A stretch of 63,943 nucleotides of DNA, taken from a virus. Its lineage: Duplodnaviria; Caudoviricetes. Made by a program: the position numbers and the translations under genes. The stretch lies in the IMG/VR virus record IMGVR_UViG_3300025103_002730, positions 1-63,943 of that record; one strand, 5' to 3'. The notes below the pieces were generated by a model. The model saw only the letters and a program-made list of their open reading frames with translations. It made no database searches and was not told the DNA's origin. Shown here in pieces: positions 4,354-49,296 of this stretch (position 1 is the stretch's first letter; the number at the start of each line of letters is the position of its first letter).

Positions 4354-5820
4354 ATGAGTATGTTAAAAGAGATACGCCGAGACGAAAAACCGGGATATAG
4401 TTGGTATCGGTGTGACTGCGGGGTCGAAAAAAGGATTAGAAGAAACGCCGTCACAAGCAATGGAACGAAATCTTGCGGGTGCCATCGAAGAAGAACCGCG
4501 ATTAAGAATGGGAAAAAAGTCTCTACACACGGTATGTCAAACACTCCTGTTTATCGCTTTTGGTCTGAATCAAAATCTAAGGGATACCTCAAAGAAGAGT
4601 GGCACGACTTTAATATTTTCTATCAAGAGGCTGGTAAGGATTACAAATTAGGAATGCAGATCGTCAACGGCCAATGGGTTAATTCTAGTCAGTCTAAGAA
4701 ACACAGAACTGAGGAAACATCATTTAAGAAATTTGGGGTTAATTACCCTACTCAATCTGAATCTGTAAAACAAAAGATTAAGGAAACCAATATCGAAAGA
4801 TATGGCGTAGCAGTAGTAACTAAGTCAGAGGTCATTAAAAAGAAAACCGTCGAAACCTGCATGAAAAAATACGGAGTTCCACATCACTCTATGACTCCAG
4901 AGTACAAGGAGCGGGCTAGTCAGAGAAATTCAGCAAAGTTTGAAGGAAAAACCAGTGGTGAGTGGGCTAAGGAACTAGAGATTTCACGGTCCTACTTTAA
5001 CATACTTGTAAGAGAACATGGAATTGAATACGCACTATCTCACGAAAAGAACATTTCATCAATTGAACTTATGATAAGCAAAGTTCTACAAGAACTCGGT
5101 GTCGAATTTGAAACCCAACACAAGGTGGAAAACAAGATAGCCGACTTTTTCATTCCTAAATTCAATCTTGTTATAGAGGCAGACGGTCACTATTGGCACT
5201 CAGACGCAATTAATAAAGACAAGATGTATCATTGTAACAAGCGTCAACTTTATATTGATAATGGTCTCTCTCCCTTATTCTTTCGTGAGGGTGAGATTGT
5301 TCGTAAAACCGATATTGTTCGGTCTATTATCGTCAATAAACTTGGAATGTCTAAAAAGATTTTTGCTCGCAAGTGCTCTCTGGTTAACCTAAATCTAAAA
5401 GACAGAAAGTCTTTTCTTGAAACAAATCACTTGATGGGGCCGGGTCGCGGGAAGTGTTTTGCTTTAGAATTCAGCGGAGAAATTGTTGCGGTCATACAGT
5501 ATACCAACAGAAATGGTAATATTGATGTTTCCAGATTTTGTTCTAGTATGGGCGTCCAAGTTGTGGGAGGGTTCTCTAAACTTCTCACTGCTATGGAACG
5601 CTTAGAATCGCCCCTCTCAGTAACGAACTTTGTAGACCTACGATACGGTACAGGTGCTCATCTGGAGCAGTTTGGGTTTAATCTGGAGCGTTGTGGAGTC
5701 AGTTTTGCTTGGGTCAAAGACTTAGACTGTATACATCGTATGAGATTTCCCGGAAAATCAGGATACGAACACGGGTTTAGAAGAATGTACGACTGTGGAC
5801 AAGCTAAGTTTGTCAAATAG
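4354..5820 (+). CDS. Free-standing homing endonuclease (Hef-like, Vsr/DUF559-type PD-(D/E)XK domain)
   Basis: N-terminal CDCG...TKSCGC module, 'ETNIERYG/ETCMKKYG' repeats, catalytic-like 'ADFFIPKFNLVIEADGHYWHS', and a C-terminal 'IFARKC...FLETNHL...SRFC...GGFSKLL...YDCG' domain. Confidence 0.8.
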   Translation: MSMLKEIRRDEKPGYSWYRCDCGVEKRIRRNAVTSNGTKSCGCHRRRTAIKNGKKVSTHGMSNTPVYRFWSESKSKGYLKEEWHDFNIFYQEAGKDYKLGMQIVNGQWVNSSQSKKHRTEETSFKKFGVNYPTQSESVKQKIKETNIERYGVAVVTKSEVIKKKTVETCMKKYGVPHHSMTPEYKERASQRNSAKFEGKTSGEWAKELEISRSYFNILVREHGIEYALSHEKNISSIELMISKVLQELGVEFETQHKVENKIADFFIPKFNLVIEADGHYWHSDAINKDKMYHCNKRQLYIDNGLSPLFFREGEIVRKTDIVRSIIVNKLGMSKKIFARKCSLVNLNLKDRKSFLETNHLMGPGRGKCFALEFSGEIVAVIQYTNRNGNIDVSRFCSSMGVQVVGGFSKLLTAMERLESPLSVTNFVDLRYGTGAHLEQFGFNLERCGVSFAWVKDLDCIHRMRFPGKSGYEHGFRRMYDCGQAKFVK

Positions 5821-5852
5821 AAAAAGCCCCGACCATTTGGCCGGGGCTTCTT
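5821..5852. terminator. Bidirectional terminator between convergent transcription units
   Basis: AAAAAGCCCCGACC-ATTT-GGCCGGGGCTTCTT: GC-rich hairpin with an A run on one side and a T-rich run on the other. Confidence 0.75.
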
Positions 5853-5880
5853 CGTTGGCAGAGGTATCTAACAATGCCTC

Positions 5881-6237
5881 TTATTCGTTCACACCCTTCT
5901 CTTTATTCCACCGTACCCAGCCACCATTAGGTAACCAGTCGTCGCCATCCTTGCGTTTGGGGAATAGTCCGCCACCCGTTTTGTGGGCACCGAACGCCAG
6001 TTTCGCTCGACAATTAAGATCCTTGCAGTGGATTTCGTGATACAAGTTGTCGTCGTTGTTGCGAACGACAAAGCGAACGTCATCATTGCCACATCTTCCA
6101 CATTTGTTTTGCCCGAATACTTCCTGAAAACGACCTACAGCTTGGAAGATATCTGTCTGACCGTCTCCCTCTAGCTCAACGCTCCAACGTCCATCGGGTG
6201 ACTTGTGTGTAACTTTCATTTGCTCGTGCTTCTCCAA
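5881..6237 (-). CDS. Small Zn-finger protein, possibly nucleic-acid binding
   Basis: CGRC and HCKDLNC motifs; coupled to the SSAP-like gene. Confidence 0.5.
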   Translation of the reverse strand: MEKHEQMKVTHKSPDGRWSVELEGDGQTDIFQAVGRFQEVFGQNKCGRCGNDDVRFVVRNNDDNLYHEIHCKDLNCRAKLAFGAHKTGGGLFPKRKDGDDWLPNGGWVRWNKEKGVNE

Positions 6238-6992
6238 TCATTTTGGTAAGAAAAAATAGAATCTGGAATCAACGACTTATCGCCTTGATACTCGTTTAGT
6301 TTTTCAATCGCGTCACTCGCCTGTCGTTTGTCAACCTTGCGGCTAACATTGATTTTGAATACGTCTTTGAAAAATGTCGTCACATTGATATCCAACTGCT
6401 TTGCTTTAATGTCAATGAAGTTGGCTTGAGGATCTGTCATCCTCCCCGAATTGTCATATTCACCCTCCGTCGAAGAATTCTTCTTGCCACTCAGTTCTTT
6501 TACGATACTGGCGGTGTTCTTGCTTGTCATTTCCTCTGAAGAAGCTGTCTTGATTCCAAGAGCCTTCCGCAAAGCACGACTCTCAGCCCGTGTGGCTGCT
6601 GTCGCAGTGTTAAACACACAGAATGCGTCATCTGTGTTTCCTTCCCAACAGTCGGCTACGTCGGCAAATACTTGCCCCGTACAAAATCTCACTTCCCATA
6701 CGACCGTTGCTCGTCCAATCTCATCATGAGTGCTTGGTGGGAATACCTGAGTGGGACGACTCTCAATCACTGGCCCTAATACCAATTCTGCTACACGTCT
6801 CAGTCCAGCACAGGTTGGACGTTCAGCGAACATCTCACTGTCTTCAAACAGAGACATGACCCAGTCGTTCCACTCCGGAGAAGTCCTACTCGGACCATCC
6901 AGAACGATCCTGTCCACACTTCCAGTCGCTTTCATAGCTTCCGTTGACGGACTCTCTAGTTCAGTACCCTCAAACAAATCATCTTCTGCCAT
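6216..6992 (-). CDS. Rad52/Sak-like single-strand annealing protein
   Basis: 'ATAATRAESRALRKALGI' resembles the conserved helix of Rad52-family SSAPs; C-terminal 'MTDPQANFI...KRQASDAIEKL' small domain. Confidence 0.55.
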   Translation of the reverse strand: MAEDDLFEGTELESPSTEAMKATGSVDRIVLDGPSRTSPEWNDWVMSLFEDSEMFAERPTCAGLRRVAELVLGPVIESRPTQVFPPSTHDEIGRATVVWEVRFCTGQVFADVADCWEGNTDDAFCVFNTATAATRAESRALRKALGIKTASSEEMTSKNTASIVKELSGKKNSSTEGEYDNSGRMTDPQANFIDIKAKQLDINVTTFFKDVFKINVSRKVDKRQASDAIEKLNEYQGDKSLIPDSIFSYQNDWRSTSK

Positions 6993-27785: not shown

Positions 27786-29345
27786 TCAGATTTCGTGAAT
27801 TTTGTTTACAATGAAGGAATTATCCTGCTCTACGTCACCGCACAGCATTAGGTTGTTGCCCTCATAAAGAATGAACCTGTACTTTTCTCTGGTCTCAGGA
27901 AATACCACGACGCTATCAAGAGAACAGGAAGCGTCTTCAACGGTTAGGAATGACATGAGTTTGCCAAAGTTCTTGCCCTGCTTCTTGATCTTGAAGTTGT
28001 TCATCCTTGTGATGTTCACTACAAGACAGATATCCTTACCAAACTTCCCATTCGCGATATCCTTACATGAAGTGTTGGAGATAGACGTATCGACCGCTTC
28101 GACTTCACTTAGGGAAACTGGACAGCCCAAGAACTTCTTTTCCATCTCGACGATCCAAGAAGGGTCATCCGACATTCCGTATGGTGGGCTTGCCAGCATA
28201 CCCACTTCGTTCAGGACGATCTGACTACGGTTGGCGTTACTGGTCCCTCCACCCATCTTCTTTGTAGGAGACAGGTCTTGAAAACACTCACCAAGGGTTT
28301 CCCATCGTTTTTCCGGATACTGCGTTGTAACCCACTTCATTTCCGCCTTAGTCAGTTCACGGAATATAAGGTATTCGTACAGTGCCTTATTTCTGCTCAC
28401 ACCGGTAGATTTGGTAGAGAAAAACCCAATAGAACACAGGGCTTTGAAAGCAGTACTAGTTATGTTGGGAGCAATGTATAATAGAACATCCATCCAAGTG
28501 AATTCTTCCGGCTTCTTCTGCGACTCCCATACCGCAGCACCAATAGCCCTCACTACCTTGTCGCCAGTGACCCCAGTAAGACCCTTAACATCCTTGACCC
28601 CAAAGAACACGTCTCTACCCACACGCTCAAATTTCAGACCAAAAGAGGTTAGATTTGGCGACTTCACCTCAATGTCAAACAGTTTAGCCTCAGAGACCAG
28701 TTCATAGATCTCCTGATGGGTATCCTGTTTTTCATTCGCGTGGTATAGGTAAGACGTGAAGAACTCAACCGTGTGATTAGCCTTGTACCAAGCTGACCAA
28801 TAGGAGTCCTTAGCGTAAGCCACAGCGTGAGACTTATTGAATGAGTAACGAGACGACTTCTCGATCCAGCCAAAGATTTCCCTAGCAGTAACATCGTCTA
28901 CTATCCCAACTTTCTCACAACCCTTGATAAACTGCTCACGGATTTCCATCATCAGCTTGGCTTTCTTCTTTCCGATAGCCTTACGTAGATAGTCCGATTC
29001 CTGCTCGGTGAAACCTGCCAGCTTCACGGCGATACGCATCGCCTGCTCTTGATAGACCAACACCCCATAAGTCGTATTGAGAATATCTGCAAGAGAGTCA
29101 TGAAGGTAGGTTACCTCTTCTCGGCCAGCCTTACGGTCAACAAAACGCTGACTCATAGATTTGCCGTCAACGATAGCCTTTAAACATCCCGGTCTAATGA
29201 TCGCGATGAGTGCTGCCAACTCTTCAATATTGCTGGGTGCAACCTTCTTAGACCAAGACCTCCCAAGGTTACTCTCCAGTTGGAAAACACCCTTAGTAAG
29301 ACCGTTATGATACAAAGCCCACGTTTTTTCGTCTCTTAGATCCAT
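27786..29345 (-). CDS. dnaE: DNA polymerase III alpha subunit, C-terminal half
   Basis: 'GVFQLES', 'ALIAIIRPG', 'TYGVLVYQEQAM', 'LRKAIGKKK', 'YSFNKSHAVAY', and C-terminal OB fold 'MSFLTVEDAS...VVVFPE'. Confidence 0.9.
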   Translation of the reverse strand: MDLRDEKTWALYHNGLTKGVFQLESNLGRSWSKKVAPSNIEELAALIAIIRPGCLKAIVDGKSMSQRFVDRKAGREEVTYLHDSLADILNTTYGVLVYQEQAMRIAVKLAGFTEQESDYLRKAIGKKKAKLMMEIREQFIKGCEKVGIVDDVTAREIFGWIEKSSRYSFNKSHAVAYAKDSYWSAWYKANHTVEFFTSYLYHANEKQDTHQEIYELVSEAKLFDIEVKSPNLTSFGLKFERVGRDVFFGVKDVKGLTGVTGDKVVRAIGAAVWESQKKPEEFTWMDVLLYIAPNITSTAFKALCSIGFFSTKSTGVSRNKALYEYLIFRELTKAEMKWVTTQYPEKRWETLGECFQDLSPTKKMGGGTSNANRSQIVLNEVGMLASPPYGMSDDPSWIVEMEKKFLGCPVSLSEVEAVDTSISNTSCKDIANGKFGKDICLVVNITRMNNFKIKKQGKNFGKLMSFLTVEDASCSLDSVVVFPETREKYRFILYEGNNLMLCGDVEQDNSFIVNKIHEI

Positions 29346-29346
29346 C

Positions 29347-29640
29347 TCACCATCCTAACAGCGACTTAACATCAAATTTCACACAAAGGAAATATACCAA
29401 GTTACCTATCGCAGACCCCAATACCAGACCCAAACATAACCCCGCAACGAATCTGTTCTCCAGAATACCGTCTTCCACAATATCTTCTGGGTTCGCCCTC
29501 GCTCTTTCCTCAGCGTTGTCTAGTTGGTTAATGGTAAACAGATAGTCAACTGGGCTACCGTGATCATCGAACTCGTGAAGGTGATAGTAATAGGGTTGAG
29601 CAGTCCTATACCTGTTTTTGTTCTCTACTTTTCTGAGCAT
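29347..29640 (-). CDS. Hypothetical membrane protein
   Basis: 97 aa with a C-terminal hydrophobic helix; RBS GGAG. Confidence 0.6.
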   Translation of the reverse strand: MLRKVENKNRYRTAQPYYYHLHEFDDHGSPVDYLFTINQLDNAEERARANPEDIVEDGILENRFVAGLCLGLVLGSAIGNLVYFLCVKFDVKSLLGW

Positions 29641-29648
29641 GATTTCTC

Positions 29649-30326
29649 CTACTTAATTGCTAGACCACCATTGGCAAAACACTTGTCCACCGTTAGATTT
29701 TGATAGACTAGACGGCGGGACTTTTGAAACTTGATGAAGATGTTGGCTGTATCCTTAACGTCCTGTAGGGCGTCGTGAGCGTTCTCTGAGGACATTCCCA
29801 TACGTTCTCGCAGAGAGTCCATACTGATAGACTTGATGGCAGGGTCGCCCTCTGTCCACAGCCACATGTCGTCCATAACATCGATCTTGTAGATCTGATG
29901 GAATAGCTTCTGACCCTGTCTCTTATCATCGAAGGGTCCGTATTCCTTGCACAAACGGTCTACGATCTTCATGTCATATCCCAAGATGTTAAACCCACAT
30001 GGAATTGGGGCGTGGAACTGTTTTCCAGACCAGTTGTACTTATTAACGAATGTACAGAACTTCTTCCATACACCCTTAGGGAGCGGTGCTTTAGCAAGCT
30101 GCTTCCGTGTCTGACCTGTGACCTTGAGTGCCCCTTCCTCAAGAGGGTCAACTCCAGCAGCCAGTGCTTTCTCGTCGTCAATAATTGGACGCATCATACT
30201 CTGGAATTCACCCTTGGGCCTAAAATTGCGACCATCTAGGGCGATAGCAGCAATCTGAGTTGGCTGACAACGAAGTGGGTTACGTCCACCTGTTTCAAAG
30301 TCGAAGCAAATTATATCCCTATTCAT
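29649..30326 (-). CDS. DEDDh 3'-5' exonuclease (DnaQ/epsilon-like)
   Basis: ExoI 'FDFETGG', ExoII 'GFNILGYD', ExoIII 'HDALQD'. Confidence 0.9.
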   Translation of the reverse strand: MNRDIICFDFETGGRNPLRCQPTQIAAIALDGRNFRPKGEFQSMMRPIIDDEKALAAGVDPLEEGALKVTGQTRKQLAKAPLPKGVWKKFCTFVNKYNWSGKQFHAPIPCGFNILGYDMKIVDRLCKEYGPFDDKRQGQKLFHQIYKIDVMDDMWLWTEGDPAIKSISMDSLRERMGMSSENAHDALQDVKDTANIFIKFQKSRRLVYQNLTVDKCFANGGLAIK

Positions 30327-30454
30327 TGTAATTTCCTCTCCGAATGAGAATAAGTTTTCATTATCTTTTGTCCTTTATTCTTAAAGGTAATAGCTTCGCA
30401 AAAATCGAGAAATTCTTGCTCCTCCATATTACCCTTCATCACATTCACTCGTTT
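30323..30454 (-). pseudogene. C-terminal remnant of an HNH-type homing endonuclease
   Basis: Reads KRVNVMKGNMEEQEFLDFCEAI..., paralleling 'KEINRMKSNLPEGDFLQIIKNI' at the end of ORF 30773-31456. Confidence 0.65.
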
Positions 30455-30456
30455 AA

Positions 30457-30756
30457 TTAGTTCCAACCCCTTCCCCTTTGGTTATCTTCTACCCGGCGAA
30501 CCCTTTTCTCCAATTGTTCCATCATGCCCTGCAACTGTTCGATACTTCGCCTGTTCAATTCGTGACAAACTTTAGCTTTTGTTGCTTCACCCCACTTCTT
30601 TTCGCGTTCTTCGTTGAGTTCAATCATTGTAATGGCGTTTTCTAGAAGATCTGAGATGTAGATCTTATCATGACCAGAGACACAAGAGTCCAACTCTGGC
30701 ATAGATCTCATTACTGTGGCGGCTTGTGCGTAGCGTTCTTTACTGAAGGGTTTCAT
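30457..30756 (-). CDS. Hypothetical protein
   Basis: 99-aa ORF with coiled-coil C-terminus; RBS AAGG. Confidence 0.55.
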   Translation of the reverse strand: MKPFSKERYAQAATVMRSMPELDSCVSGHDKIYISDLLENAITMIELNEEREKKWGEATKAKVCHELNRRSIEQLQGMMEQLEKRVRRVEDNQRGRGWN

Positions 30757-30772
30757 TGTTCAACCTTTAATA

Positions 30773-31456
30773 CTAAAATGATAATATTAACTCCTTATAT
30801 TCTGCAATATTCTTGATTATCTGCAAGAAATCGCCCTCCGGTAGATTTGACTTCATTCTATTAATCTCTTTATGTACCCACTGTACGTTTCCCGACACGT
30901 ACCCCTTACTGCTGTCTATTCTATCTAAAGAGGCTGTAGAGTCCCCCTTCTGCTTCCTAGTCTTCGGAAAGAAAATTGGCTGACCGGAATAAGCACATAG
31001 ACCATTCTGATCAAGGTATTTAGCCCAAGCATATTCCATGGTTATATCAAATTCTAACATTCTTTTTTCAGCACCCTTGGTGTACTGACCCCAGTGGCTT
31101 GCTTGAATCTCTTCATAACCCCTAAAGTTTGGGTGAGACGACCCTCTTTTCCTTGAGTTACAACCACAGCTTTTCGTGTTTCCGCTAGTTAAAGAGTGAT
31201 TTAGTACAGGTATTTTGTTTCCACAATCACAAACACAATTCAGAATCGCGTGCGAATATTCATCCCTACCGTGTACGCTGATGACCATGAGGGAGCCAAA
31301 TTTTTTACCTATCCACCTTCTCTCTGGGGTTTTTGATATACCCCACTTCTTCATCCTTTGGGACACGCAAGCCTCGCTCAGATTAAATTCCTTGGCTACC
31401 TCGCGTTGTGTCTTCCCCTCAGTGTAAATCATTGCTTGTAAAGTCTCTTTGTTCAT
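30773..31456 (-). CDS. HTH + HNH-type homing endonuclease
   Basis: HTH, 'CVCDCG...TKSCGC', 'CAYSG...SLDRIDSSKGYVSGNVQWVHKEINRMK'. Confidence 0.85.
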   Translation of the reverse strand: MNKETLQAMIYTEGKTQREVAKEFNLSEACVSQRMKKWGISKTPERRWIGKKFGSLMVISVHGRDEYSHAILNCVCDCGNKIPVLNHSLTSGNTKSCGCNSRKRGSSHPNFRGYEEIQASHWGQYTKGAEKRMLEFDITMEYAWAKYLDQNGLCAYSGQPIFFPKTRKQKGDSTASLDRIDSSKGYVSGNVQWVHKEINRMKSNLPEGDFLQIIKNIAEYKELILSF

Positions 31457-31497: not shown

Positions 31498-33153
31498 TCA
31501 ATTTCCTATTAATTCCCTCACATACATCAATTTATCTAGGAGATTTATCCCGAGAACATCGAATTTCACATGTCCTAGTGCCTCTAGGTCGTTCATTTCA
31601 AGACCGGCAATCTTCTCGCCTCCACTTTTCTGGTTAACCATAGGGCATACCTCGTGAAGCGGTAGAGCAGAGATCACAACACCAGCGGCGTGCTTACCCT
31701 GTGTCTTGAAGGTTCCCTCAAGATCAATAGCTTGTTGGAAGTATTCAGCATAGTCACCGTGCAGTACACCTTCATCGTCAATATAGCAGTAGTCCCTAAG
31801 GTCGTCTGCATTATTCAGAAGTGCCCACCGGATTATAGAGCGATCCTCTTCGTCCATTAGTGCTAACTGGTCGGATATAGCGGCCTCGTCAGGTATGTAC
31901 TTGGTAATGTAGTTCATCTCACCAAACCCACAGGCTTCGTTCACACGTAGAATCTCTTTGATTGCACTGCGACCCTGTAGCCTACCAAAAGTACACATTT
32001 GGCTAACGTTCTCGGCACCATACCTGTTCTTCAACTCCTGAATGATTTCATCACGCTTACCCGTAGGAACGTCCATGTCAATATCGGGTAGGGACACATG
32101 ATCTTCTGTGTTACGACCGTCGTTGTAGAAACGCTCAAAGATAAGAGCAAACTCAATAGGGTCGATCATGGTGATCTTCATGAGGTAGGAGATCAGACAC
32201 CCAGCAGCAGACCCTCTCCCCGGACCAACCATCCAGCCGTTACTACGGCAGAAGTTGAGAATATCCCAAACGATAAGGAAGTAACCTGAGAGATTAGCAT
32301 TCTCTATAACCTTGAGTTCTCTGTCGTAGCGTGCCCTGTATTCTACACAGTTATCAGATGTAATAGTGCCGTCTTTCTCTAGCTCCAACCAGCCCTCTTT
32401 ACACAATTCTACCAGATACTCACCTTCGCTGTAACCAACAGGACAGGGGAATTTAGGAAGCATTGGCTTACTGAGGATATTGTAGTTCTCACACTTGTCA
32501 AAGATCTCATCGAAGATATCCATCTTAGGATCATCCACTAGAATCTGTGCGGCCTCCATCCTGTCTTTTATGTAGAATTCGCTACACTCGAAGAACATCT
32601 GGTAGTCAGTAATGTCAGTGTTGTTTCGGATCAGTTGGAGACCGGGGATGACGTATATCCGCTTTACTTGTGACATAGTCTTCTTTAGGTGACCACATAT
32701 CAAAACCCTGTGCAGTTCAGCTTGATCTCTCTCTACGTAATACGTATTTGGGAAAGCAGAACTCTTCTGATAGAAGTCTTCACCTGAGATTGGTGAGACA
32801 GAGGGATCTCTAGCCAGACAGATTAGGTTACCCTGATTAGCCAGCTTGACCAATAGCCCAGTGTCAACATTTCCCCTGTCGTCGAGGGTGGACACGATGC
32901 GGATTAGTTCCAACCAACCTTCTTTGTTCTTAGCAAAGAGGGTGAAACCATCAAACGTACAACCAATGATTGGCTTGATATCGTTCGCTATGCAGGCTTG
33001 GTAAAAAGAAACGGCTCCGGAGATTGACTTGTAATCAGCTATCCCGCAGGCCCGATAAGAATTCTCTGAGCATTTTTTAGCTAGTTGTTTGGGCTTTGAG
33101 AAGGCTCGCTGTAGAGAATAGTGCGTGTAATTGCACAACGGAAACCACTTCAT
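31498..33153 (-). CDS. dnaE: DNA polymerase III alpha subunit, N-terminal half (PHP + palm/thumb)
   Basis: PHP 'HYS...IKPIIG', 'GPGRGSAAG', 'FERF', catalytic 'PDIDMD', 'GKHAAGVVI', 'VKFDVLG'. Confidence 0.92.
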   Translation of the reverse strand: MKWFPLCNYTHYSLQRAFSKPKQLAKKCSENSYRACGIADYKSISGAVSFYQACIANDIKPIIGCTFDGFTLFAKNKEGWLELIRIVSTLDDRGNVDTGLLVKLANQGNLICLARDPSVSPISGEDFYQKSSAFPNTYYVERDQAELHRVLICGHLKKTMSQVKRIYVIPGLQLIRNNTDITDYQMFFECSEFYIKDRMEAAQILVDDPKMDIFDEIFDKCENYNILSKPMLPKFPCPVGYSEGEYLVELCKEGWLELEKDGTITSDNCVEYRARYDRELKVIENANLSGYFLIVWDILNFCRSNGWMVGPGRGSAAGCLISYLMKITMIDPIEFALIFERFYNDGRNTEDHVSLPDIDMDVPTGKRDEIIQELKNRYGAENVSQMCTFGRLQGRSAIKEILRVNEACGFGEMNYITKYIPDEAAISDQLALMDEEDRSIIRWALLNNADDLRDYCYIDDEGVLHGDYAEYFQQAIDLEGTFKTQGKHAAGVVISALPLHEVCPMVNQKSGGEKIAGLEMNDLEALGHVKFDVLGINLLDKLMYVRELIGN

Positions 33154-36615: not shown

Positions 36616-36687
36616 TAATAATCACCTTATAGGAATTGGTGTCCGACCGTTCTTTTTGTAGAAAGTCCGTCTTACACTTATTAGATT

Positions 36688-37728
36688 CTATCCGGGACTT
36701 TCGTAAAAACCTATGTCAAATCCGGGTCTGGTACATTTCTTGACGGTCTCTTCCATTCCGTGTTCTTTTATGTGTTTCTCTATAAATAGACACATATTTT
36801 CATCAGTTCCCTCCCAATTAGTCTTACAATAGTGGCACATTCTCGTACATTTGAAAGACCTACGACTGGGGTCCATTAGCTTAGGACTAGTGTTTTTCTT
36901 GATTTCCTCGAATCTCTTCTTGAGCATCCCCAGAAATCGCTCCTCATCGCTCTTATCGAAGCACATACTGAAGGGTTTTGGGTCCATTTCTCCCTCGGTA
37001 TCCTTGCAGAAGAAGATGCTCATGATCCGATTCAGATAGTCTGGGTACAACTTGGAGATAGCATAGAAGTAGAGCAACAACTGAGGGTCACTACTTAACT
37101 TTTTGAAGTCTTTTTCTTCCCCAGTAGCCCAGTTCATACGTCGCCCGGTCTTCCAGTCAATAACCTCGATGGTTTCGTCATTAACCAGAGTCACAAGGTC
37201 AATGGTGCCCTTGATAGCAAGCTGACCCTTCACCATTTTACCATCAATCTCATACTCAAACTTTGCCCAGTCTTCTTCAATAGGAATATCAAAGTGAGGC
37301 TCAGGATGATGGATGTTGCGGAGGCGTGGGTCGAACTGACCGCCGTTCTGCCTAATGAACATGTAGACGGAACGCTTTACTTCTTTCAGGTCTCTCGGGT
37401 ACCACTTATGATCCGTCATCTTTAACTTATAACACTCAAAACTTAACTCACACAACTCATCCAAAAGATCGTCGGTGAGCAATCTGTTCTTATCAATTTT
37501 TACTTTACCGCAGGCATCATCTTCAACTACCAGAAACTTGTTCTTGGGTTTGTCCTGTTGGAATTTCTTCAGCCCAGAAAGGATCTCCATAACCTTGTGG
37601 GCCATCGTCCCCATGTCGGCACGCTTATTACTCTTAGACGGCCAGCCTAGGTTGTAAGTGATGAAATACTGCATTTGGCAGTAGTCAAAGTTGGTATAGC
37701 TGCTCGACCTGATGTACGTAACGATCAA
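36688..37728 (-). CDS. PD-(D/E)XK exonuclease (RecB/Cas4-like)
   Basis: 'GTMAHKVME', 'IKGTIDLV...IDWKTG', 'QLLLY', C-terminal CxxxCxxC. Confidence 0.85.
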   Translation of the reverse strand: MIVTYIRSSSYTNFDYCQMQYFITYNLGWPSKSNKRADMGTMAHKVMEILSGLKKFQQDKPKNKFLVVEDDACGKVKIDKNRLLTDDLLDELCELSFECYKLKMTDHKWYPRDLKEVKRSVYMFIRQNGGQFDPRLRNIHHPEPHFDIPIEEDWAKFEYEIDGKMVKGQLAIKGTIDLVTLVNDETIEVIDWKTGRRMNWATGEEKDFKKLSSDPQLLLYFYAISKLYPDYLNRIMSIFFCKDTEGEMDPKPFSMCFDKSDEERFLGMLKKRFEEIKKNTSPKLMDPSRRSFKCTRMCHYCKTNWEGTDENMCLFIEKHIKEHGMEETVKKCTRPGFDIGFYESPG

Positions 37729-40141: not shown

Positions 40142-40191
40142 TTCTCCCTCCTTTTTATCTCTCAGGAAACGTACTTGATCTTCCTAGTCCA

Positions 40192-41631
40192 TTATTCATC
40201 GTCTTCCTCAATAGGTTGATTGGCACCCTCTAGAGCACCATTGGGGTTAGTTCTAGCCTCATCTCTAGTACTGATTTCTGTGATTCTAGCGTGAGCACCG
40301 TCCATGCTGAAGTTGATGTAGTTGCCGTCCACCAATCCACCACCGTGTCTAGCTTTCTTAACGACAGCCTTGTGGGTTCCGCCCTGAGGACCATCTTCGG
40401 CTATTTCCTCTTGGGCCTTTGGCTTAAAGATAGCAAATGAGGTGCAAAGCCAGATGATGCGATCTGACCCAGCCGCCACCGACGTGTCTTCCCTAGTGAT
40501 GCCGTCACGGTTCAACTGAATAAATGATAGACAGGCGAAATCATACTTAACAGAGAGGTTGTGTAGAGTAGTAATCTGAAACCCTAGTGCCTGATATTCT
40601 TGCATATTATTGGAAATACCAGAGGAAGACATGAGTTTGAGATAATCGTATACCACCAAGCAGTCGTTAGTACGACCCTCCTCATCCTGTCCAACCTCTC
40701 GTAGAATCCAGCGTTTGATAGTATTCACAATGGTCTCAAATGGAGCACCAGCAACACCAACGTAGGTGTACGGCAAAGACTTGATTTCTTCGAATGCCGC
40801 TTTGACGGCGAGGTACTTTTCCTCATTTACTGAGAACTGCCCAGTCGCAATCTCGTTAATAGGTACACCACTAATATGAGCGGCCAGCCTGTTCATATGA
40901 TCTTCTTTACTCATCTCAGTATCCAACATTAGCACTGGAATACCGTTACGAGCATTGTGGAGAGACACATTGTCAGCAAATACAGACTTACCAACACCGG
41001 GACGTGCGGAGACGATATCGATACACTTGCGTCTTAGTCCACCTCCGATAACCGCGTCATACCTAGGATATCCAGAGGTCAGACCAATTTGGTCACACTT
41101 ATTCTCTATCAAGAATTGTAGGTAGTCATCGGCACCATCGCCAAGCTGTTCTGGCTTTTGACCGTTCTCATCGTCACGTAAGAATTCCATAAGAGGATTC
41201 TCAACCAGACCAATGATATCATCAATGGATTCGTCCCCATTGATATCGTCAATACCCCTCTCAATCTTCTTGGCAATACGTTTGGCACTTCGGGCAAACT
41301 CAAACTTCTTAATCTGTGCCGCGAAGAAAAGAACATTGTCCTGCTTAACGGGAAACTCCATCAAGGAACCAATGTATTCTAACTCCTGATCTGTGTTGAT
41401 AACATCAGATAGGTTGAGTTGTTGTGCGGCAGACAGGATGGCTGGCACGTCTACTACGGCCTCGTTCTGCAAGACCTTCTCAATACACTTGTAGATAACC
41501 TGATTGTTCTGATGAGCAAAGCTACCGTGATCAATAACATCGTTGATTTCTACATATGCGTCCAGTCCATAGCTAAACAGTCCTGCCAAGACGGCTCGTT
41601 CAGCACCAATGTCTGAGAGTTTCTGATCCAT
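40192..41631 (-). CDS. dnaB: Replicative DNA helicase
   Basis: 'AERAVLAG', Walker A 'ARPGVGKS', 'DTEMS', 'DYLKLM', 'QLNR', 'KARHG'. Confidence 0.93.
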   Translation of the reverse strand: MDQKLSDIGAERAVLAGLFSYGLDAYVEINDVIDHGSFAHQNNQVIYKCIEKVLQNEAVVDVPAILSAAQQLNLSDVINTDQELEYIGSLMEFPVKQDNVLFFAAQIKKFEFARSAKRIAKKIERGIDDINGDESIDDIIGLVENPLMEFLRDDENGQKPEQLGDGADDYLQFLIENKCDQIGLTSGYPRYDAVIGGGLRRKCIDIVSARPGVGKSVFADNVSLHNARNGIPVLMLDTEMSKEDHMNRLAAHISGVPINEIATGQFSVNEEKYLAVKAAFEEIKSLPYTYVGVAGAPFETIVNTIKRWILREVGQDEEGRTNDCLVVYDYLKLMSSSGISNNMQEYQALGFQITTLHNLSVKYDFACLSFIQLNRDGITREDTSVAAGSDRIIWLCTSFAIFKPKAQEEIAEDGPQGGTHKAVVKKARHGGGLVDGNYINFSMDGAHARITEISTRDEARTNPNGALEGANQPIEEDDE

Positions 41632-44874: not shown

Positions 44875-45189
44875 TTATCTAACAGTGGTGGTACATTTGC
44901 TGGACCGAGGTGTTTGAACCGGATCCTTCCTCATGCCATCAGCCATTTCCGCCGCATTCGGCGTCATGACCGTAGCCCCACCCGCATCGTTTCTGGCGAA
45001 CTGATCGAACACTCTACCTTTACCCTCAACCTTTGTGGGAACGGTATTATTCTTAGGTAGTGTACTGATAAACTTTTTGATTGCAATTTGTGATCGGTCT
45101 AAATCCTTACACAGTTCCTTTACTCCTAAATCTACATGATTCTCAATGTAGAATTTTTCTGCCTTACTGAGCGGTCCCTTCTTAGTCAT
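44875..45189 (-). CDS. Hypothetical protein with possible HTH
   Basis: 'LSKAEKFYIE...VKELCKDLDRS'. Confidence 0.55.
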   Translation of the reverse strand: MTKKGPLSKAEKFYIENHVDLGVKELCKDLDRSQIAIKKFISTLPKNNTVPTKVEGKGRVFDQFARNDAGGATVMTPNAAEMADGMRKDPVQTPRSSKCTTTVR

Positions 45190-45538
45190 TCAAAAATCCC
45201 CTTTGTGCCTTTGTCAGGTAAATAGAATTGTTAGTCTTGAGGTAAGTCAAGTACAAATCGAACGTATTCTTGGAAACTCTCTTCATTTTGGTATCAAGAT
45301 TACGTTGTCTCTTACTGTACGGCCCCATGGGGTCGAGCAGTGTTCCCGTGTGTGTCAGGACGTAGTAAACCATAGCACCCCCCGCCTCAGTGTTAGAAAT
45401 CGTCTTAGCATAGTGCGGTACCTTATGCTTGTTTTCTTCACCTACTAGAGATCCAGTTCTGTCGAACAGTTCTTCTTTTCGCGTATCTGAAATAGCGAAT
45501 GGCTTGTTTACATAACGCATCTGTGGTTTTTCTGTCAT
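45182..45538 (-). CDS. Hypothetical protein
   Basis: 118-aa ORF coupled by an ATGA overlap. Confidence 0.55.
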   Translation of the reverse strand: MTEKPQMRYVNKPFAISDTRKEELFDRTGSLVGEENKHKVPHYAKTISNTEAGGAMVYYVLTHTGTLLDPMGPYSKRQRNLDTKMKRVSKNTFDLYLTYLKTNNSIYLTKAQRGFLND

Positions 45539-45894
45539 TTCTTACCTTCCATAACGTAGCGTAGTTTTTGATTAGGAGACATCTTATTAATCTCCTTACT
45601 GGTGGCGTCACCGCCATGTTTGTCCACCCAAGTCTTGGGTTCTTCCGGAGTTTCCTCACGCTTCTTGGCAGCCGCTTCAGCTATTCTGGTTTTGTTAGCC
45701 TTAGTATTCTTAGCGGCTAACTGACCAACGGTCTCCACTTTCTTTACCTGAAATCCCAATCCACCGGAAATAACTCTAGACAACGCTGGTTCCCCACACG
45801 CTGGACATATCTCTAGTGGTAGATCGGTCATCCCCTGTGTAACATCCTCAAGGAAATGCTCACACCCTGAGCACTCATAGTCGTAGTCTGGCAT
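45535..45894 (-). CDS. FmdB-family zinc-ribbon protein
   Basis: 'MPDYDYECSGC...CPACG...RVISG'. Confidence 0.85.
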   Translation of the reverse strand: MPDYDYECSGCEHFLEDVTQGMTDLPLEICPACGEPALSRVISGGLGFQVKKVETVGQLAAKNTKANKTRIAEAAAKKREETPEEPKTWVDKHGGDATSKEINKMSPNQKLRYVMEGKK

Positions 45895-46548
45895 TCAACT
45901 CTCCAACGCTTGAATCACTTCACCTAAGATACCATTACGCTGAATATCTCTATATGTTAATTCACAAATAGCACATCTATCAATACCGCCTATCTTATCA
46001 ATAACGGACTGTAGACCGCTTCTACCACATAAGTCATCCTGATGGGTGTCACCGTTAATGAGTACTTTAGAATTCTGTCCCATACGAGTGATAAACATTT
46101 TGATTTGCTCAAGTGTACAGTTCTGAGCCTCGTCCAGAATCATATATGTGTCATGGAAAGTTGCTCCACGCATGAGTTCCAGGGGGCGATATTGAATAGC
46201 ACCATCGTTTGAGTAGTGACCGTAGAATGCCTGACCAAGAAAATGCTTCAGATTCTCTTCCATTGGCAGTAGATACGGTGCGATCTTTTCATTCATCTCT
46301 CCCGGCAAAGAACCAATTTCCTTGCCGGTACTAACAAGGGGTCTCGTAACAATGACCTGTGCGGTTTCGCCCTTATGCAGTTGGTGTGCCGCTATACCGG
46401 CGGCTATAAAAGACTTCCCAGACCCAGATGGTCCGGAACAGATGATTATGTCATGCTCAATGATAGCTCGGATGTAATCTTTCTGATTAAATGTTTTAGC
46501 TTCAAGGGCAACAAGTTTAGGTTGCTTCCCCTTTTTAGATTTTCTCAT
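45895..46548 (-). CDS. phoH: PhoH-family ATPase
   Basis: 'GPSGSGKS', 'TRP', 'GSLPG', 'MRGATF', 'LDEAQN', 'TRMG', 'GD..Q.D'. Confidence 0.93.
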   Translation of the reverse strand: MRKSKKGKQPKLVALEAKTFNQKDYIRAIIEHDIIICSGPSGSGKSFIAAGIAAHQLHKGETAQVIVTRPLVSTGKEIGSLPGEMNEKIAPYLLPMEENLKHFLGQAFYGHYSNDGAIQYRPLELMRGATFHDTYMILDEAQNCTLEQIKMFITRMGQNSKVLINGDTHQDDLCGRSGLQSVIDKIGGIDRCAICELTYRDIQRNGILGEVIQALES

Positions 46549-46556
46549 GTGACCCC

Positions 46557-47087
46557 TTATAGATCAGATTCTTTGACGAAGATTCCGTCGATCATTTTGC
46601 CTTTACGGTCTTTAATGTCTTCCCATGCTTTTGCAAGACAGTCTTCGAGAGAGATATTGTTTCTCTCAGTAATATTCAGCATAACGACTAACATATCCCC
46701 AATATCATCCCTGATATCCTTACCCTTACACACGCTGTCGGATAGCTCACCTAACTCTTGAGCGAGTTTTAGGGTTTGGTCCTTATCTGTGCTACCGTCT
46801 ATTAGGTTTCGGTCATGGTGCCACCCAATGACATCATCAATCAACGCCGCGAGGCGGTACTTGTTAGTAGTATATTGAATAGGTAACTCATAGTTATCCA
46901 TTAATCGTGCCTTCGCCCCGCGAAATAGACCATCCCTATTTGCGATAACACTGGTAACGTAGAAATTATTACCATGTTCATCTACTCCCGCCTCACATAC
47001 ACCAGACATAGGTATATCAAAGGTTCCTGCTTGCCATCCAGTCAACTGGGCCATTCTCGCCGTCTGATCCGCGTGCTGCTCTGTCAT
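46557..47087 (-). CDS. MazG-like nucleotide pyrophosphohydrolase
   Basis: 'QTLKLAQELGEL...DDIGDMLVV...LEDCL..AWEDIKDRKG...GIFVKE'. Confidence 0.85.
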   Translation of the reverse strand: MTEQHADQTARMAQLTGWQAGTFDIPMSGVCEAGVDEHGNNFYVTSVIANRDGLFRGAKARLMDNYELPIQYTTNKYRLAALIDDVIGWHHDRNLIDGSTDKDQTLKLAQELGELSDSVCKGKDIRDDIGDMLVVMLNITERNNISLEDCLAKAWEDIKDRKGKMIDGIFVKESDL

Positions 47088-47398
47088 AGTTTCATATCTC
47101 CAAAGTCCATGTCTTCCAAATCGTTCTTACTAGCACCAATTTTGTAACTGGTGATCTCATGTTCCTGAGGGGCGACCTGTACAGATTCGCTACTCATCCA
47201 AGGCTCAGTCCAACCAGCAATAGGGTTTTTGCCAACGTTGTCGTATGGCAGGCCAATATTCTTACGGCGTGACATACACAACCAATCAATATACTGGTGA
47301 AGAACATCGTAACGCTGAACACCAAGGTCTTTCCCTAGGAATAAGGGTTGACTCATAGGGTCCACATGTTTAAGATTGAAAATTGTTTTCATTGTCAC
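47084..47398 (-). CDS. nrdB: Mini ribonucleotide reductase beta subunit: N- and C-termini fused in frame, di-iron core deleted
   Basis: N-terminal 'TIFN...QPLFLG..LGVQRYD' and C-terminal 'LHQYIDWL...NPIAGWTEPW.SS..VQVAPQEHEITSY' both match class Ia NrdB; total length only 104 aa. Confidence 0.8.
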   Translation of the reverse strand: MTMKTIFNLKHVDPMSQPLFLGKDLGVQRYDVLHQYIDWLCMSRRKNIGLPYDNVGKNPIAGWTEPWMSSESVQVAPQEHEITSYKIGASKNDLEDMDFGDMKL

Positions 47399-47401
47399 TC
47401 A

Positions 47402-48022
47402 TTACCAAAGTAATACTGGTACTATTACTATGTCTTTGATTGAGGCGTCCCGCATGGTTACGCTACCCGTTTCACTGTCCGTTGAAAATTTAAGGACAAT
47501 ATCATACCGCTTACCCTTTTGGATATCCGTAAGGTTAACTTGATCACCGTCGTTTGGGAGGAACACTTCTACGGATTTCATCTCATAGTACACTCTCTGT
47601 ACGTAAAGTATGAAAACGCCAGATGGAGAATGAGAATTGTCTTCTATTACACGTCCCTGCTGACCCTCGCCCTCTAAGACATTGGTCTGATCGTTAGGTT
47701 CCGGTTTTGGGTCAGCGACCACATCCCATTTCTTACTCTTACCCTCGAAGAAAACCGTCTTTTCTTCTGTCCTCTCTTCATCTGTATAAAAAGCAAACTC
47801 ACCCTCTATTATGGGTTCTTCATCTATATCTATGAAAGGTTCTAACTTTCCATTCCCCATTATAGGGTCTAACGTAAAGCTGGTAGTCAGCCCAAAATGA
47901 GTAAGCCCAAAGTGACTTGGAGCAGCCGTCCCCACTACGGTAGCTACCAGAGGCTCACTAATAGGAAGTAAAGCCCCAGCAAATAACCCGCTCAACGCTT
48001 TGTTAAATGTTCTTCTATCCAC
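47402..48022 (-). CDS. Hypothetical protein with Tat-like signal peptide
   Basis: Starts MDRRTFNKALSGLFAGALLP (twin-arginine plus hydrophobic stretch); RBS GGAG. Confidence 0.6.
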   Translation of the reverse strand: MDRRTFNKALSGLFAGALLPISEPLVATVVGTAAPSHFGLTHFGLTTSFTLDPIMGNGKLEPFIDIDEEPIIEGEFAFYTDEERTEEKTVFFEGKSKKWDVVADPKPEPNDQTNVLEGEGQQGRVIEDNSHSPSGVFILYVQRVYYEMKSVEVFLPNDGDQVNLTDIQKGKRYDIVLKFSTDSETGSVTMRDASIKDIVIVPVLLW

Positions 48023-48158
48023 GGTATTTTCTCCCGTTAGTTGTTTTCGTCTGCAAAATCATTGATACCCTTCCTGATTTGTTCCCCTTGATCTATTTGT
48101 TCTTCGGTTATTTCTTTCTCTCCATAGCTCTGTGCGGACCATCCGGGAGGATCACTCT

Positions 48159-48187
48159 ATTATATCCCTCAGACCCCGTATTGTCAA
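48159..48187 (-). promoter_or_regulatory. Consensus sigma-70 promoter heading the replication/metabolism operon
   Basis: TTGACA-17 nt-TATAAT, perfect consensus. Confidence 0.85.
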
Positions 48188-48198
48188 TAGAAAAGTAC

Positions 48199-48238
48199 AA
48201 AAAAAGTCCCCTCGCAGCATAAAAGCCGCAAGAGGACT
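48199..48238 (-). terminator. Rho-independent terminator ending the membrane/lysis-like operon
   Basis: AGTCCTCTTGCGGC-TTTTAT-GCTGCGAGGGGACT followed by a T run. Confidence 0.8.
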
Positions 48239-48257
48239 ATGAAATTGAATCTACTTC

Positions 48258-48464
48258 TTAGTCGAGAGGTTTGTCAGGCTGAACAATTGTCACTTCGATT
48301 CCCTCTCCAAGCTGTATGGTGGCAATCTTCTTGCCGTCTTCCACTTTGAACTCAACCATGTCAATGATGGTTTTAACCCTTTCGACTTGTTCTTTTGTCA
48401 CACCTAGATGTTCAAGTACTGTGTCAACAAGGCGACCTGTTATTGTCATTGACTTGTACCCCAC
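48258..48464 (-). CDS. Small hypothetical protein
   Basis: Likely start MTITG overlapping the upstream stop. Confidence 0.5.
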   Translation of the reverse strand: MGYKSMTITGRLVDTVLEHLGVTKEQVERVKTIIDMVEFKVEDGKKIATIQLGEGIEVTIVQPDKPLD

Positions 48465-48922
48465 GAAATAGCGGTTAGGATCTTCACAAGTCGTTCACGG
48501 CGGTCACCATCTAATGGTATATTTTCTTTACCGATAGCAGAAATCACTGCTTTATCGATAGCTTCACCTAGATCTGGGTAGATGCCCTTGATATCTTGAC
48601 CAGCAAAGTTCATCGCACCAGCCATGATATTGAATTCACGGAACTGACCGGTGCTCTTTAAGAAGCCGGGGTCAGTCTCGATAACGCTTGCCATCTCAAC
48701 GAAGAAGGGTCTGAGTACAGATGAATGCTCTTTGCTAATATCAATGTCTACAACGTTTTTAACCATCTTCTGGTATAAATCGGACGGTTCGTCTACGACA
48801 ACTACGTCTGGCGTGTTTGGGGTAAAGTCTACGTTATCCTTTGCCCACTGAACTAATTGTTCCCCAAAGAGACCTGTAAGTACTAAAATGAAGGCGGCGA
48901 TAAGTCTTGTTTTTTTGTTCAT
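48446..48922 (-). CDS. Signal-anchored hypothetical protein
   Basis: Basic N-terminus plus hydrophobic helix and Pro-rich linker. Confidence 0.6.
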   Translation of the reverse strand: MNKKTRLIAAFILVLTGLFGEQLVQWAKDNVDFTPNTPDVVVVDEPSDLYQKMVKNVVDIDISKEHSSVLRPFFVEMASVIETDPGFLKSTGQFREFNIMAGAMNFAGQDIKGIYPDLGEAIDKAVISAIGKENIPLDGDRRERLVKILTAISWGTSQ

Positions 48923-49296
48923 AGTTCCACATTTCCTTGAACATCTTTACTGCTCGTGTCTGTAATACTGCCACGAAGGCCCCCAACGTCAGTATGCCCA
49001 GCCCCATCCTTGACAACAAATAGTGGGAAGATCTTGTCCAACTCAGAGATAGCTTCCGTCAACCCGCGATTAACAAGTTGGTTTCTGAGATCCTCCCAGC
49101 GTGACACTACAGTGCATAATGAATCTTCAGGGCATACCTCTGGATGGTCATTCTTTTCCGACGTAGGAACATCTTCTTTTTTCTCGTCCTTGACCCGCTT
49201 TAAGATTTTAGGCGAGATACCCTTAATCTGCCCCCAAAATGTGCTACCTCCAAGTAGTACTCCTAGACCAACTATGATCATCTGAAATGCCGTCAC
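48919..49296 (-). CDS. Membrane-anchored hypothetical protein
   Basis: N-terminal TM helix. Confidence 0.55.
   Translation of the reverse strand: MTAFQMIIVGLGVLLGGSTFWGQIKGISPKILKRVKDEKKEDVPTSEKNDHPEVCPEDSLCTVVSRWEDLRNQLVNRGLTEAISELDKIFPLFVVKDGAGHTDVGGLRGSITDTSSKDVQGNVEL

Follow-up and report, generated by a model that had tools for sequence, protein, structure and literature searches.

A coreless mini-NrdB in an uncultured marine phage is probably a young deletion scar in a circulating variant that has lost nrdA and the nrdB core

Peptides from the C-terminus of the R2 subunit inhibit class I ribonucleotide reductase (RNR), as is known from work on the E. coli and herpesvirus enzymes. According to a vaccinia virus study, the C-terminal residues of R2 are its R1-binding part, and the catalytically dead R2 protein F4 Y300F is a dominant negative only if these residues are present (PMC2900304). 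A naturally occurring short nrdB has also been described: nrdB-S of 'Candidatus Liberibacter asiaticus' (CLas) encodes 125 aa, retains the 3' end of nrdB and lacks an iron site, and it is a duplicated 3' fragment that lies beside three full-length copies in all CLas strains (PMC5154197). A further point of comparison is the full-length class Ia NrdB of related phages, which is encoded on the sister contigs L008 and L011 and at about 160 other IMG/VR loci and is about 50% similar to E. coli NrdB over its full length.

Here, a short nrdB-type gene (mini-nrdB) was analysed in a phage of an uncultured marine lineage, whose UvsX-like protein is at most 26% identical to that of any INPHARED phage. 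The window, by which we mean the whole stretch of 63,943 nt that was analysed (IMG/VR record IMGVR_UViG_3300025103_002730), contains a replication module, and a blastn search with positions 45000-49000 returned only scraps covering at most 4% of the query. The mini-NrdB resembles the sister NrdB in its first 31 and last 71-73 residues, which are 94% identical to L008, and in its position, start region, stop and overlap with a mazG-like gene; it differs in that it lacks about 255 codons, among them those for all ferritin-like core helices, and in that its partner nrdA has been deleted as well. With CLas nrdB-S (PMC5154197), the gene shares a short ORF of the type annotated as nrdB, a retained 3' end and the lack of an iron site, whereas it is an internal deletion of the only copy, keeps the 5' end too, is known from one genotype and is accompanied by no visible full-length copy or nrdA. 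Like dominant-negative R2 proteins (PMC2900304) and R2 peptides, it has an alpha-binding tail without catalytic capacity; those molecules are experimental constructs or peptides that work in the presence of a matching alpha subunit, while the mini-NrdB is known from sequence alone and its genome has lost the matching alpha gene.

The mini-NrdB ORF lies on the minus strand at 47084..47398 and encodes 104 aa from a GTG at 47398, or 102 aa from an ATG at 47392, two codons inside the ORF, which is the start used in relatives. The first-pass annotation of this DNA had described about 31 N-terminal and about 73 C-terminal NrdB residues fused in frame near 47300, with which both phmmer and an alignment with 17 full-length relatives agree (about 31 N-terminal and 71-73 C-terminal residues, joined in frame). 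The retained 5' end of nrdB (residues 1-31; 47306..47398, minus strand) has 94% protein identity to residues 1-33 of the L008 NrdB. It is followed by the junction codons V32-L33 (GTT CTT; 47300..47305, minus strand), which may originate from either side and would in that sense be a microhomology, and by the retained 3' end (residues 34-104; 47087..47299, minus strand), comprising the last helix region and the whole C-terminal alpha-binding tail (VQVAPQEHEITSYKIG...DMDFGDMKL). The retained C-terminal part shows 89-96% protein identity to 80 relatives. When compared with the PDB by phmmer, residues 24-104 matched the class Ia NrdB C-terminus, both in 7mdi (residues 311-391, E 5e-16) and in E. 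coli NrdB (residues 296-372, E about 2e-13), and residues 5-32 gave a weak alignment with residues 3-30 of E. coli NrdB. Residues 70-104 align with E. coli NrdB 341-372, and with 7mdi up to residue 391. The tail (VQVAPQEHEITSYKIGASKNDLEDMDFGDMKL) differs by one residue from that of the L008 NrdB, its alignment with E. coli NrdB reaching residue 372, and the stretch APQEhEitSY, invariant across the 17 relatives, is conserved in it. Judged by these motifs, the mini-NrdB possesses an NrdB C-terminal tail with its acidic alpha-binding end and its conserved Tyr, which we take to correspond to Y356 of E. coli. The start (GTG or ATG), the stop and the link to the downstream gene are intact, as annotated at first: the stop TGA (47084-47086) overlaps the ATG of the MazG-like gene (47085-47087) in a 4-nt ATGA. 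In position, the gene is orthologous to nrdB: it is collinear with nrdB of L008 and of 80 loci, which is flanked by the 200-aa gene (or nrdA) on one side and by mazG-like/phoH on the other.

Between the two retained ends, the catalytic part of the protein is absent. The alignment with the 17 full-length relatives has a single gap of about 260 columns in the mini-NrdB, from ...QRYD to VLHQYIDW..., and the relatives' blocks FFEKIHSQSY, NILEAVRFY and RDEALH all fall inside it. By comparison with E. coli NrdB, in which we take the di-iron ligands and the radical tyrosine to be D84, E115, H118, Y122, E204, E238 and H241, these blocks presumably hold the metal ligands and the radical tyrosine, whose loss had been proposed earlier and is borne out by the gap. 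A ferritin-like helical core that fits the Ribonuc_red_sm profile is likewise lacking: Pfam PF00268 gave no match to the mini-NrdB ORF at E<=1 and none anywhere in the window at the same threshold, the nrdB of the L008 contig being matched at 2.6e-45. An AlphaFold2 model built on an 18-row alignment had a mean pLDDT of 41.8, a pTM of 0.21 and 0 of 102 residues at or above 70, with a helix at 27-46 and a short helix at 59-66. The mini-NrdB is predicted to be without a stable fold and largely unfolded; this predicted absence of a fold would fit a remnant, yet a disordered tail could still bind. An intron, an intein or a split gene was also considered for the missing core and was rejected, with no PF00268 core elsewhere in the window and a single uninterrupted ORF in the relatives.

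The closest relative of the window is L008, part of a record of 111 kb, with 83-87% nucleotide identity. L011 shares its locus without a difference, and both contigs run collinear with the window, at 77-87% nucleotide identity around the locus and up to 94% further off. The gene order in L008 is a terminator, a perfect TTGACA-17-TATAAT promoter, nrdA (742 aa), a 63-aa gene, a 200-aa gene, nrdB (359 aa), the mazG-like gene (208 aa) and phoH. In place of the 2,489 nt that hold nrdA and the 63-aa gene in L008, the window has 118 nt, about 108 of which match, with 80% nucleotide identity, the 3' end of a gene for 107 aa located after nrdA in another relative, L034. What is gone at this upstream scar is nrdA together with the 5' two-thirds of a 107-aa-type small gene. 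The nrdA deletion scar (48037..48156, minus strand) is a 39-codon stop-to-stop frame without ATG, GTG or TTG, and it is certainly a dead stump, from which no translation from a normal start is possible. A terminator-like hairpin (48238-48205, minus strand, 14-bp stem) and, directly after it, a sigma-70-type promoter with 12 of 12 consensus positions (48187-48159, minus strand) are both conserved with L008; terminator and promoter precede nrdA in L008, and in the window they precede the 206-aa gene and mini-nrdB. The promoter sequence suggests that expression of the RNR cassette in this lineage may be driven by host sigma-70.

The absence of nrdA from the window had already been noticed in the first-pass annotation and stands, PF02867 being absent from the 63.9-kb record; what had been missed is that a deletion removed nrdA specifically, at its conserved site some 0.7 kb upstream of mini-nrdB, where the 118-nt scar is now found. 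Searches for nrdA (PF02867), NrdD (PF13597) and a second Ribonuc_red_sm found none in the 63.9-kb record, which represents about 38% of the genome by CheckV; the remaining 62% or so could hold another RNR.

The second scar lies in nrdB itself, where the 763-nt core of L008 has no counterpart in the window. In L008, the left breakpoint reads QRYDVL-KYPVF... and the right one ...NEVIL-HQYIDW, the latter being ...TVL-HQYIDW in most relatives. The window junction reads QRYDVLHQYIDW, with the left and right sides of L008 joined exactly in frame at VL, and the two breakpoints share only the Val-Leu codons. A microhomology deletion at these codons had been one of two readings offered for the fusion, and the comparison with L008 agrees with it. 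The VL codons at the junction are present on both sides in relatives. We favour the reading that the mini-NrdB is the scar of a recent deletion at a microhomology, in a phage variant that is RNR-less and circulates in nature, and we consider this very probable. The two genes of one enzyme carry two separate, independent deletions, and the untidy upstream scar, with its promoter kept and its stump left start-less, looks like decay, not design. An intact orthologue in close relatives, breakpoints at a short repeat, a neighbouring scar and confinement to a single genotype, all marks of a remnant, were found at this locus.

That an assembler collapsed a full-length nrdB (and nrdA) is conceivable for a metagenome-derived contig, and the evidence on this point is taken from Logan contigs rather than raw reads. 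By 31-mer sampling (188 words from 46600-48400), the stretch or part of it was found in 20 public runs across 15 studies, and nine of the runs had at least half of the sampled words. Four runs were flagged as possible sources, two with 100% and two with 97% of the 188 31-mers. The bridging test was made on four other runs from four studies, none of them flagged as a source, although studies of the same year may belong to one campaign. Contigs of all four bridge the nrdB junction (X5 46857-47810, X6 47026-47556, X7 46888-47401 and X8 47269-48445), X8 only barely, with 31-36 letters on the short side depending on the cut position where 31 were required. At the nrdA scar, X6 (47927-48458) and X8 span the whole scar, and X7 (47407-48148) and X5 (47855-48167) cover most of it. 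The bridging contigs have no gaps, no joints and no loose ends, and the sole differences are SNPs at 47465 and 47466 in three runs. Contig cover is absent in places in some runs (e.g., X8 46844-47213), and nothing was concluded from such holes; contigs also hide minor alleles, so that an intact allele may be present at low frequency. Independent assemblies thus bridge both scars identically, the few bases shared at the junction are far below an assembler k-mer, and an artefact would take two separate collapses 0.7 kb apart, all of which makes a collapse extremely improbable. Misassembly is effectively excluded, which settles the doubt raised about the junction in the first-pass annotation, and the RNR-less genotype circulates in several marine metagenomes.

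Among the relatives, nrdB is intact wherever it can be assessed. A scan of IMG/VR gave 328 related stretches, and the best 80 of the 328 were kept for comparison. In 72 of these 80 loci, about 760-860 nt separate the N-terminal piece from the C-terminal one, both being in the same frame, and a full-length NrdB query (tblastn) is covered to at least 98% in a single piece in the same 72; in the remaining eight, nrdB is cut by the contig end. The full-length nrdB of the relatives encodes about 359 aa (63 complete CDS were extracted), and the L008-type protein is a normal class Ia NrdB (7mdi, E 6e-93). A second set of 113 loci, which shares some contigs with the first, has the core in 95, a cut by the locus end in 18 and a coreless gene in none. 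The same fusion, sought in related phages as proposed earlier, was therefore found in 0 of 167 assessable loci (72 + 95, some contigs being in both sets). nrdA was found in 64 of the best 80 loci; in the remaining 16, the sequence upstream of nrdB is shorter than 1 kb.

Pattern searches gave a similar picture. A degenerate RYDVLHQYIDW pattern, which matched the window once, was without a match in both IMG/VR and the JGI metagenome contigs, and a looser QR[YF]DxxHQY[IV]DW pattern had none in IMG/VR, with at least 118 matches for the control pattern LHQYIDWLCM. Such searches may hide the window's own and very near records, and the uniqueness of the fusion refers to diverged lineages only; conservation of the truncated form across diverged genomes was not found. 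Exact words (a 47-mer of the mini-nrdB 5' end in IMG/VR and a 39-mer of the junction in JGI metagenome contigs) gave 0 matches each and are uninformative on near-identical copies. A search of 5.8 billion protein clusters gave 54 homologues of short length (57-182 aa), none with both ends together; these are gene-call fragments. Vibrio phage 2.058.O was considered as a carrier of the fusion on account of a 297-nt match to residues 6-102 and was discarded, as the region has a normal 366-aa nrdB and the C-terminal alignment had been stretched. As a separate observation, four short nrdB calls (P0008, P0006, P0049 and P0054) occur on long contigs, with lengths of 100 aa on a contig of 20.6 kb, 151 aa on one of 21 kb, 164 aa on one of 174 kb and, for an N-terminal call with 16 members, 113 aa on one of 37 kb, which hints that nrdB may be interrupted by a frameshift, an intron or an endonuclease insertion in some relatives.

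Several features of the mini-NrdB speak against a scar. The remnant is undecayed: it is unchanged at each of the 57 columns in which the 17 relatives are invariant, and its start, its stop and its 4-nt overlap with the next gene are intact. Across the 103 codons that remain, the window and L008 differ by 30 synonymous and 7 non-synonymous changes (dS 0.82, dN 0.029), which corresponds to an omega of only 0.035, and four of the six amino-acid changes arose in L008, while H11 and N47 are window-specific and both at variable columns. The full alpha-binding tail has been kept, a disordered tail would suffice for an inhibitor, and the genotype is viable, being found in several metagenomes. Under neutral drift on the window's half of the divergence, tens of replacements would be expected by a rough estimate from site counts; either the deletion happened in the last few percent of the window branch or constraint acts on the remnant. 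A low omega (0.09) is also obtained for the start-less stump (48037-48156) against its only homologue, in L034, and the low omega of the mini-NrdB is therefore no evidence of present function. It would have been inherited from before the deletions and would show only that the deletions are young, and an undecayed remnant fits a very recent deletion equally well. The dN/dS comparison had been put forward at the outset as a check on selection; the omega is indeed low, whereas its use as a sign of selection fails on the stump, and pairwise dN/dS was dropped as a selection test. Synonymous sites are saturated against all outgroups (dS above 2 or not computable).

The other reading offered in the first-pass annotation was a domesticated, dominant-negative modulator of RNR, in which the intact C-terminal tail would bind to a class Ia alpha subunit, whether from the host or from RNR-positive relatives that co-infect it, and would block or modulate ribonucleotide reduction. 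The tail being one residue off that of the L008 NrdB, the intact frame, start and coupling, the low omega and the presence of the genotype in several samples are all compatible with such a decoy, and there is a precedent in the dead vaccinia R2, which is dominant negative only with its C-terminal R1-binding residues (PMC2900304). However, the phage has lost the only alpha subunit known to match its tail, the fusion occurs in no diverged lineage, and the legacy omega of the adjacent stump is similar, so that the low omega carries no information. Blocking the host class Ia RNR would moreover harm a phage without its own RNR; the lack of a predicted fold weighs only slightly against a decoy. With the fusion unique to this genotype (0 of 167 loci and no pattern matches) and no selection demonstrable, an outcome that the first-pass annotation had itself named as refuting its idea, we regard the domesticated tail decoy as very improbable. 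A more specific form, in which an RNR-discarding marine phage keeps a tail-only NrdB that occupies the beta-tail groove of NrdA and biases dNTP supply or competition in mixed infections, seems slightly more improbable still. If true, a decoy of this kind would be a new natural way to interfere with RNR and would parallel in nature the R2 C-terminal peptides that act as inhibitors. The mini-NrdB is most likely a leftover without selected function, not a new inhibitor; as a gene, mini-nrdB is an ordinary remnant.

Between the two scars, the 206-aa gene (47402..48022, minus strand) is intact; it belongs to no Pfam family and has a twin-arginine-like N-terminus (MDRRTFNKALSGLFAGAL) and a tandem HFGLT-HFGLT. 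A homologue between nrdA and nrdB is found only in L008/L011 among the best 80 loci. On the other side lies the MazG-like gene (46557..47087, minus strand, 176 aa), whose start overlaps the stop of mini-nrdB as in L008, with phoH next. At 208 aa, its L008 counterpart (6219-6845) is longer, the difference being in the variable N-terminal half; from most other relatives, no more than the C-terminal MazG domain (45-57% of the L008 protein) can be aligned.

It may be that the open frame of mini-nrdB is selected and the product is not, as ribosomes would have to cross the nrdB remnant to reach the mazG-like start and phoH. The 4-nt ATGA stop/start overlap is present in both the window and L008, and the one promoter at 48187-48159 now serves the 206-aa gene, mini-nrdB, the mazG-like gene and phoH, with no strong promoter between (internal matches reach 9 of 12, no more than in shuffled sequence). 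Nevertheless, an in-frame outcome is expected in 1 of 3 cases by chance, only a single event is at hand, and the coupling is predicted; in many relatives, mazG does not overlap nrdB (gaps of 20-160 nt), which means that coupling is not a conserved requirement. Selection on the frame is thus a possibility that we hold to be rather unlikely, if considerably less so than a decoy.

Further observations concern the wider window. A family-B DNA polymerase is encoded in two minus-strand ORFs, an N-terminal one at 31498-33153 (PHROG 405 positions 245-615) and a C-terminal one at 27786-29345 (positions 627-1063), about 2.1 kb apart and with four small ORFs between them (29347-31456); the arrangement may reflect a split polymerase or the insertion of a mobile element. 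At 4354-5820, one of the few plus-strand ORFs in a window in which nearly all ORFs are on the minus strand encodes a 488-aa HNH/homing-endonuclease-like protein (PHROG 3339, E 5e-63). The sister record L082 has two extra genes at 4736-6440 (153 aa and 429 aa, with Tat-like RR(D/E)FI N-termini) that are absent at about 36660-36700 of the window, and a 582-nt segment is also missing near 40158-40203 relative to the sister record; these are either ordinary flexible-gene differences or further deletions.

With a deletion scar as the preferred reading, the locus can be traced to an ancestor that would have had the lineage-standard cassette of promoter, nrdA, small gene, 200-aa gene, nrdB, mazG-like gene and phoH. 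One deletion would have taken nrdA and the 5' part of the next small gene, and a separate one about 255 nrdB codons between two short GTTCTT-like (Val-Leu) microhomologies, leaving the first 31 or so and the last 71 or so codons in frame. The product is without a metal site or radical tyrosine, and the open frame may be due either to chance (1 in 3) or to a filter against polar effects on the coupled mazG-like gene and phoH. The resulting phage lacks a class I RNR at this locus and nonetheless circulates in nature.

These findings have two implications. First, an intact-looking short ORF with a low omega can be a fresh scar, which calls for caution in annotating short nrdB genes and in proposing decoys from sequence alone. 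Second, nrdA-nrdB is found in every other assessable contig of the lineage, and a variant without both is present in several marine metagenomes; therefore, the phage RNR appears to be dispensable at least under some conditions.
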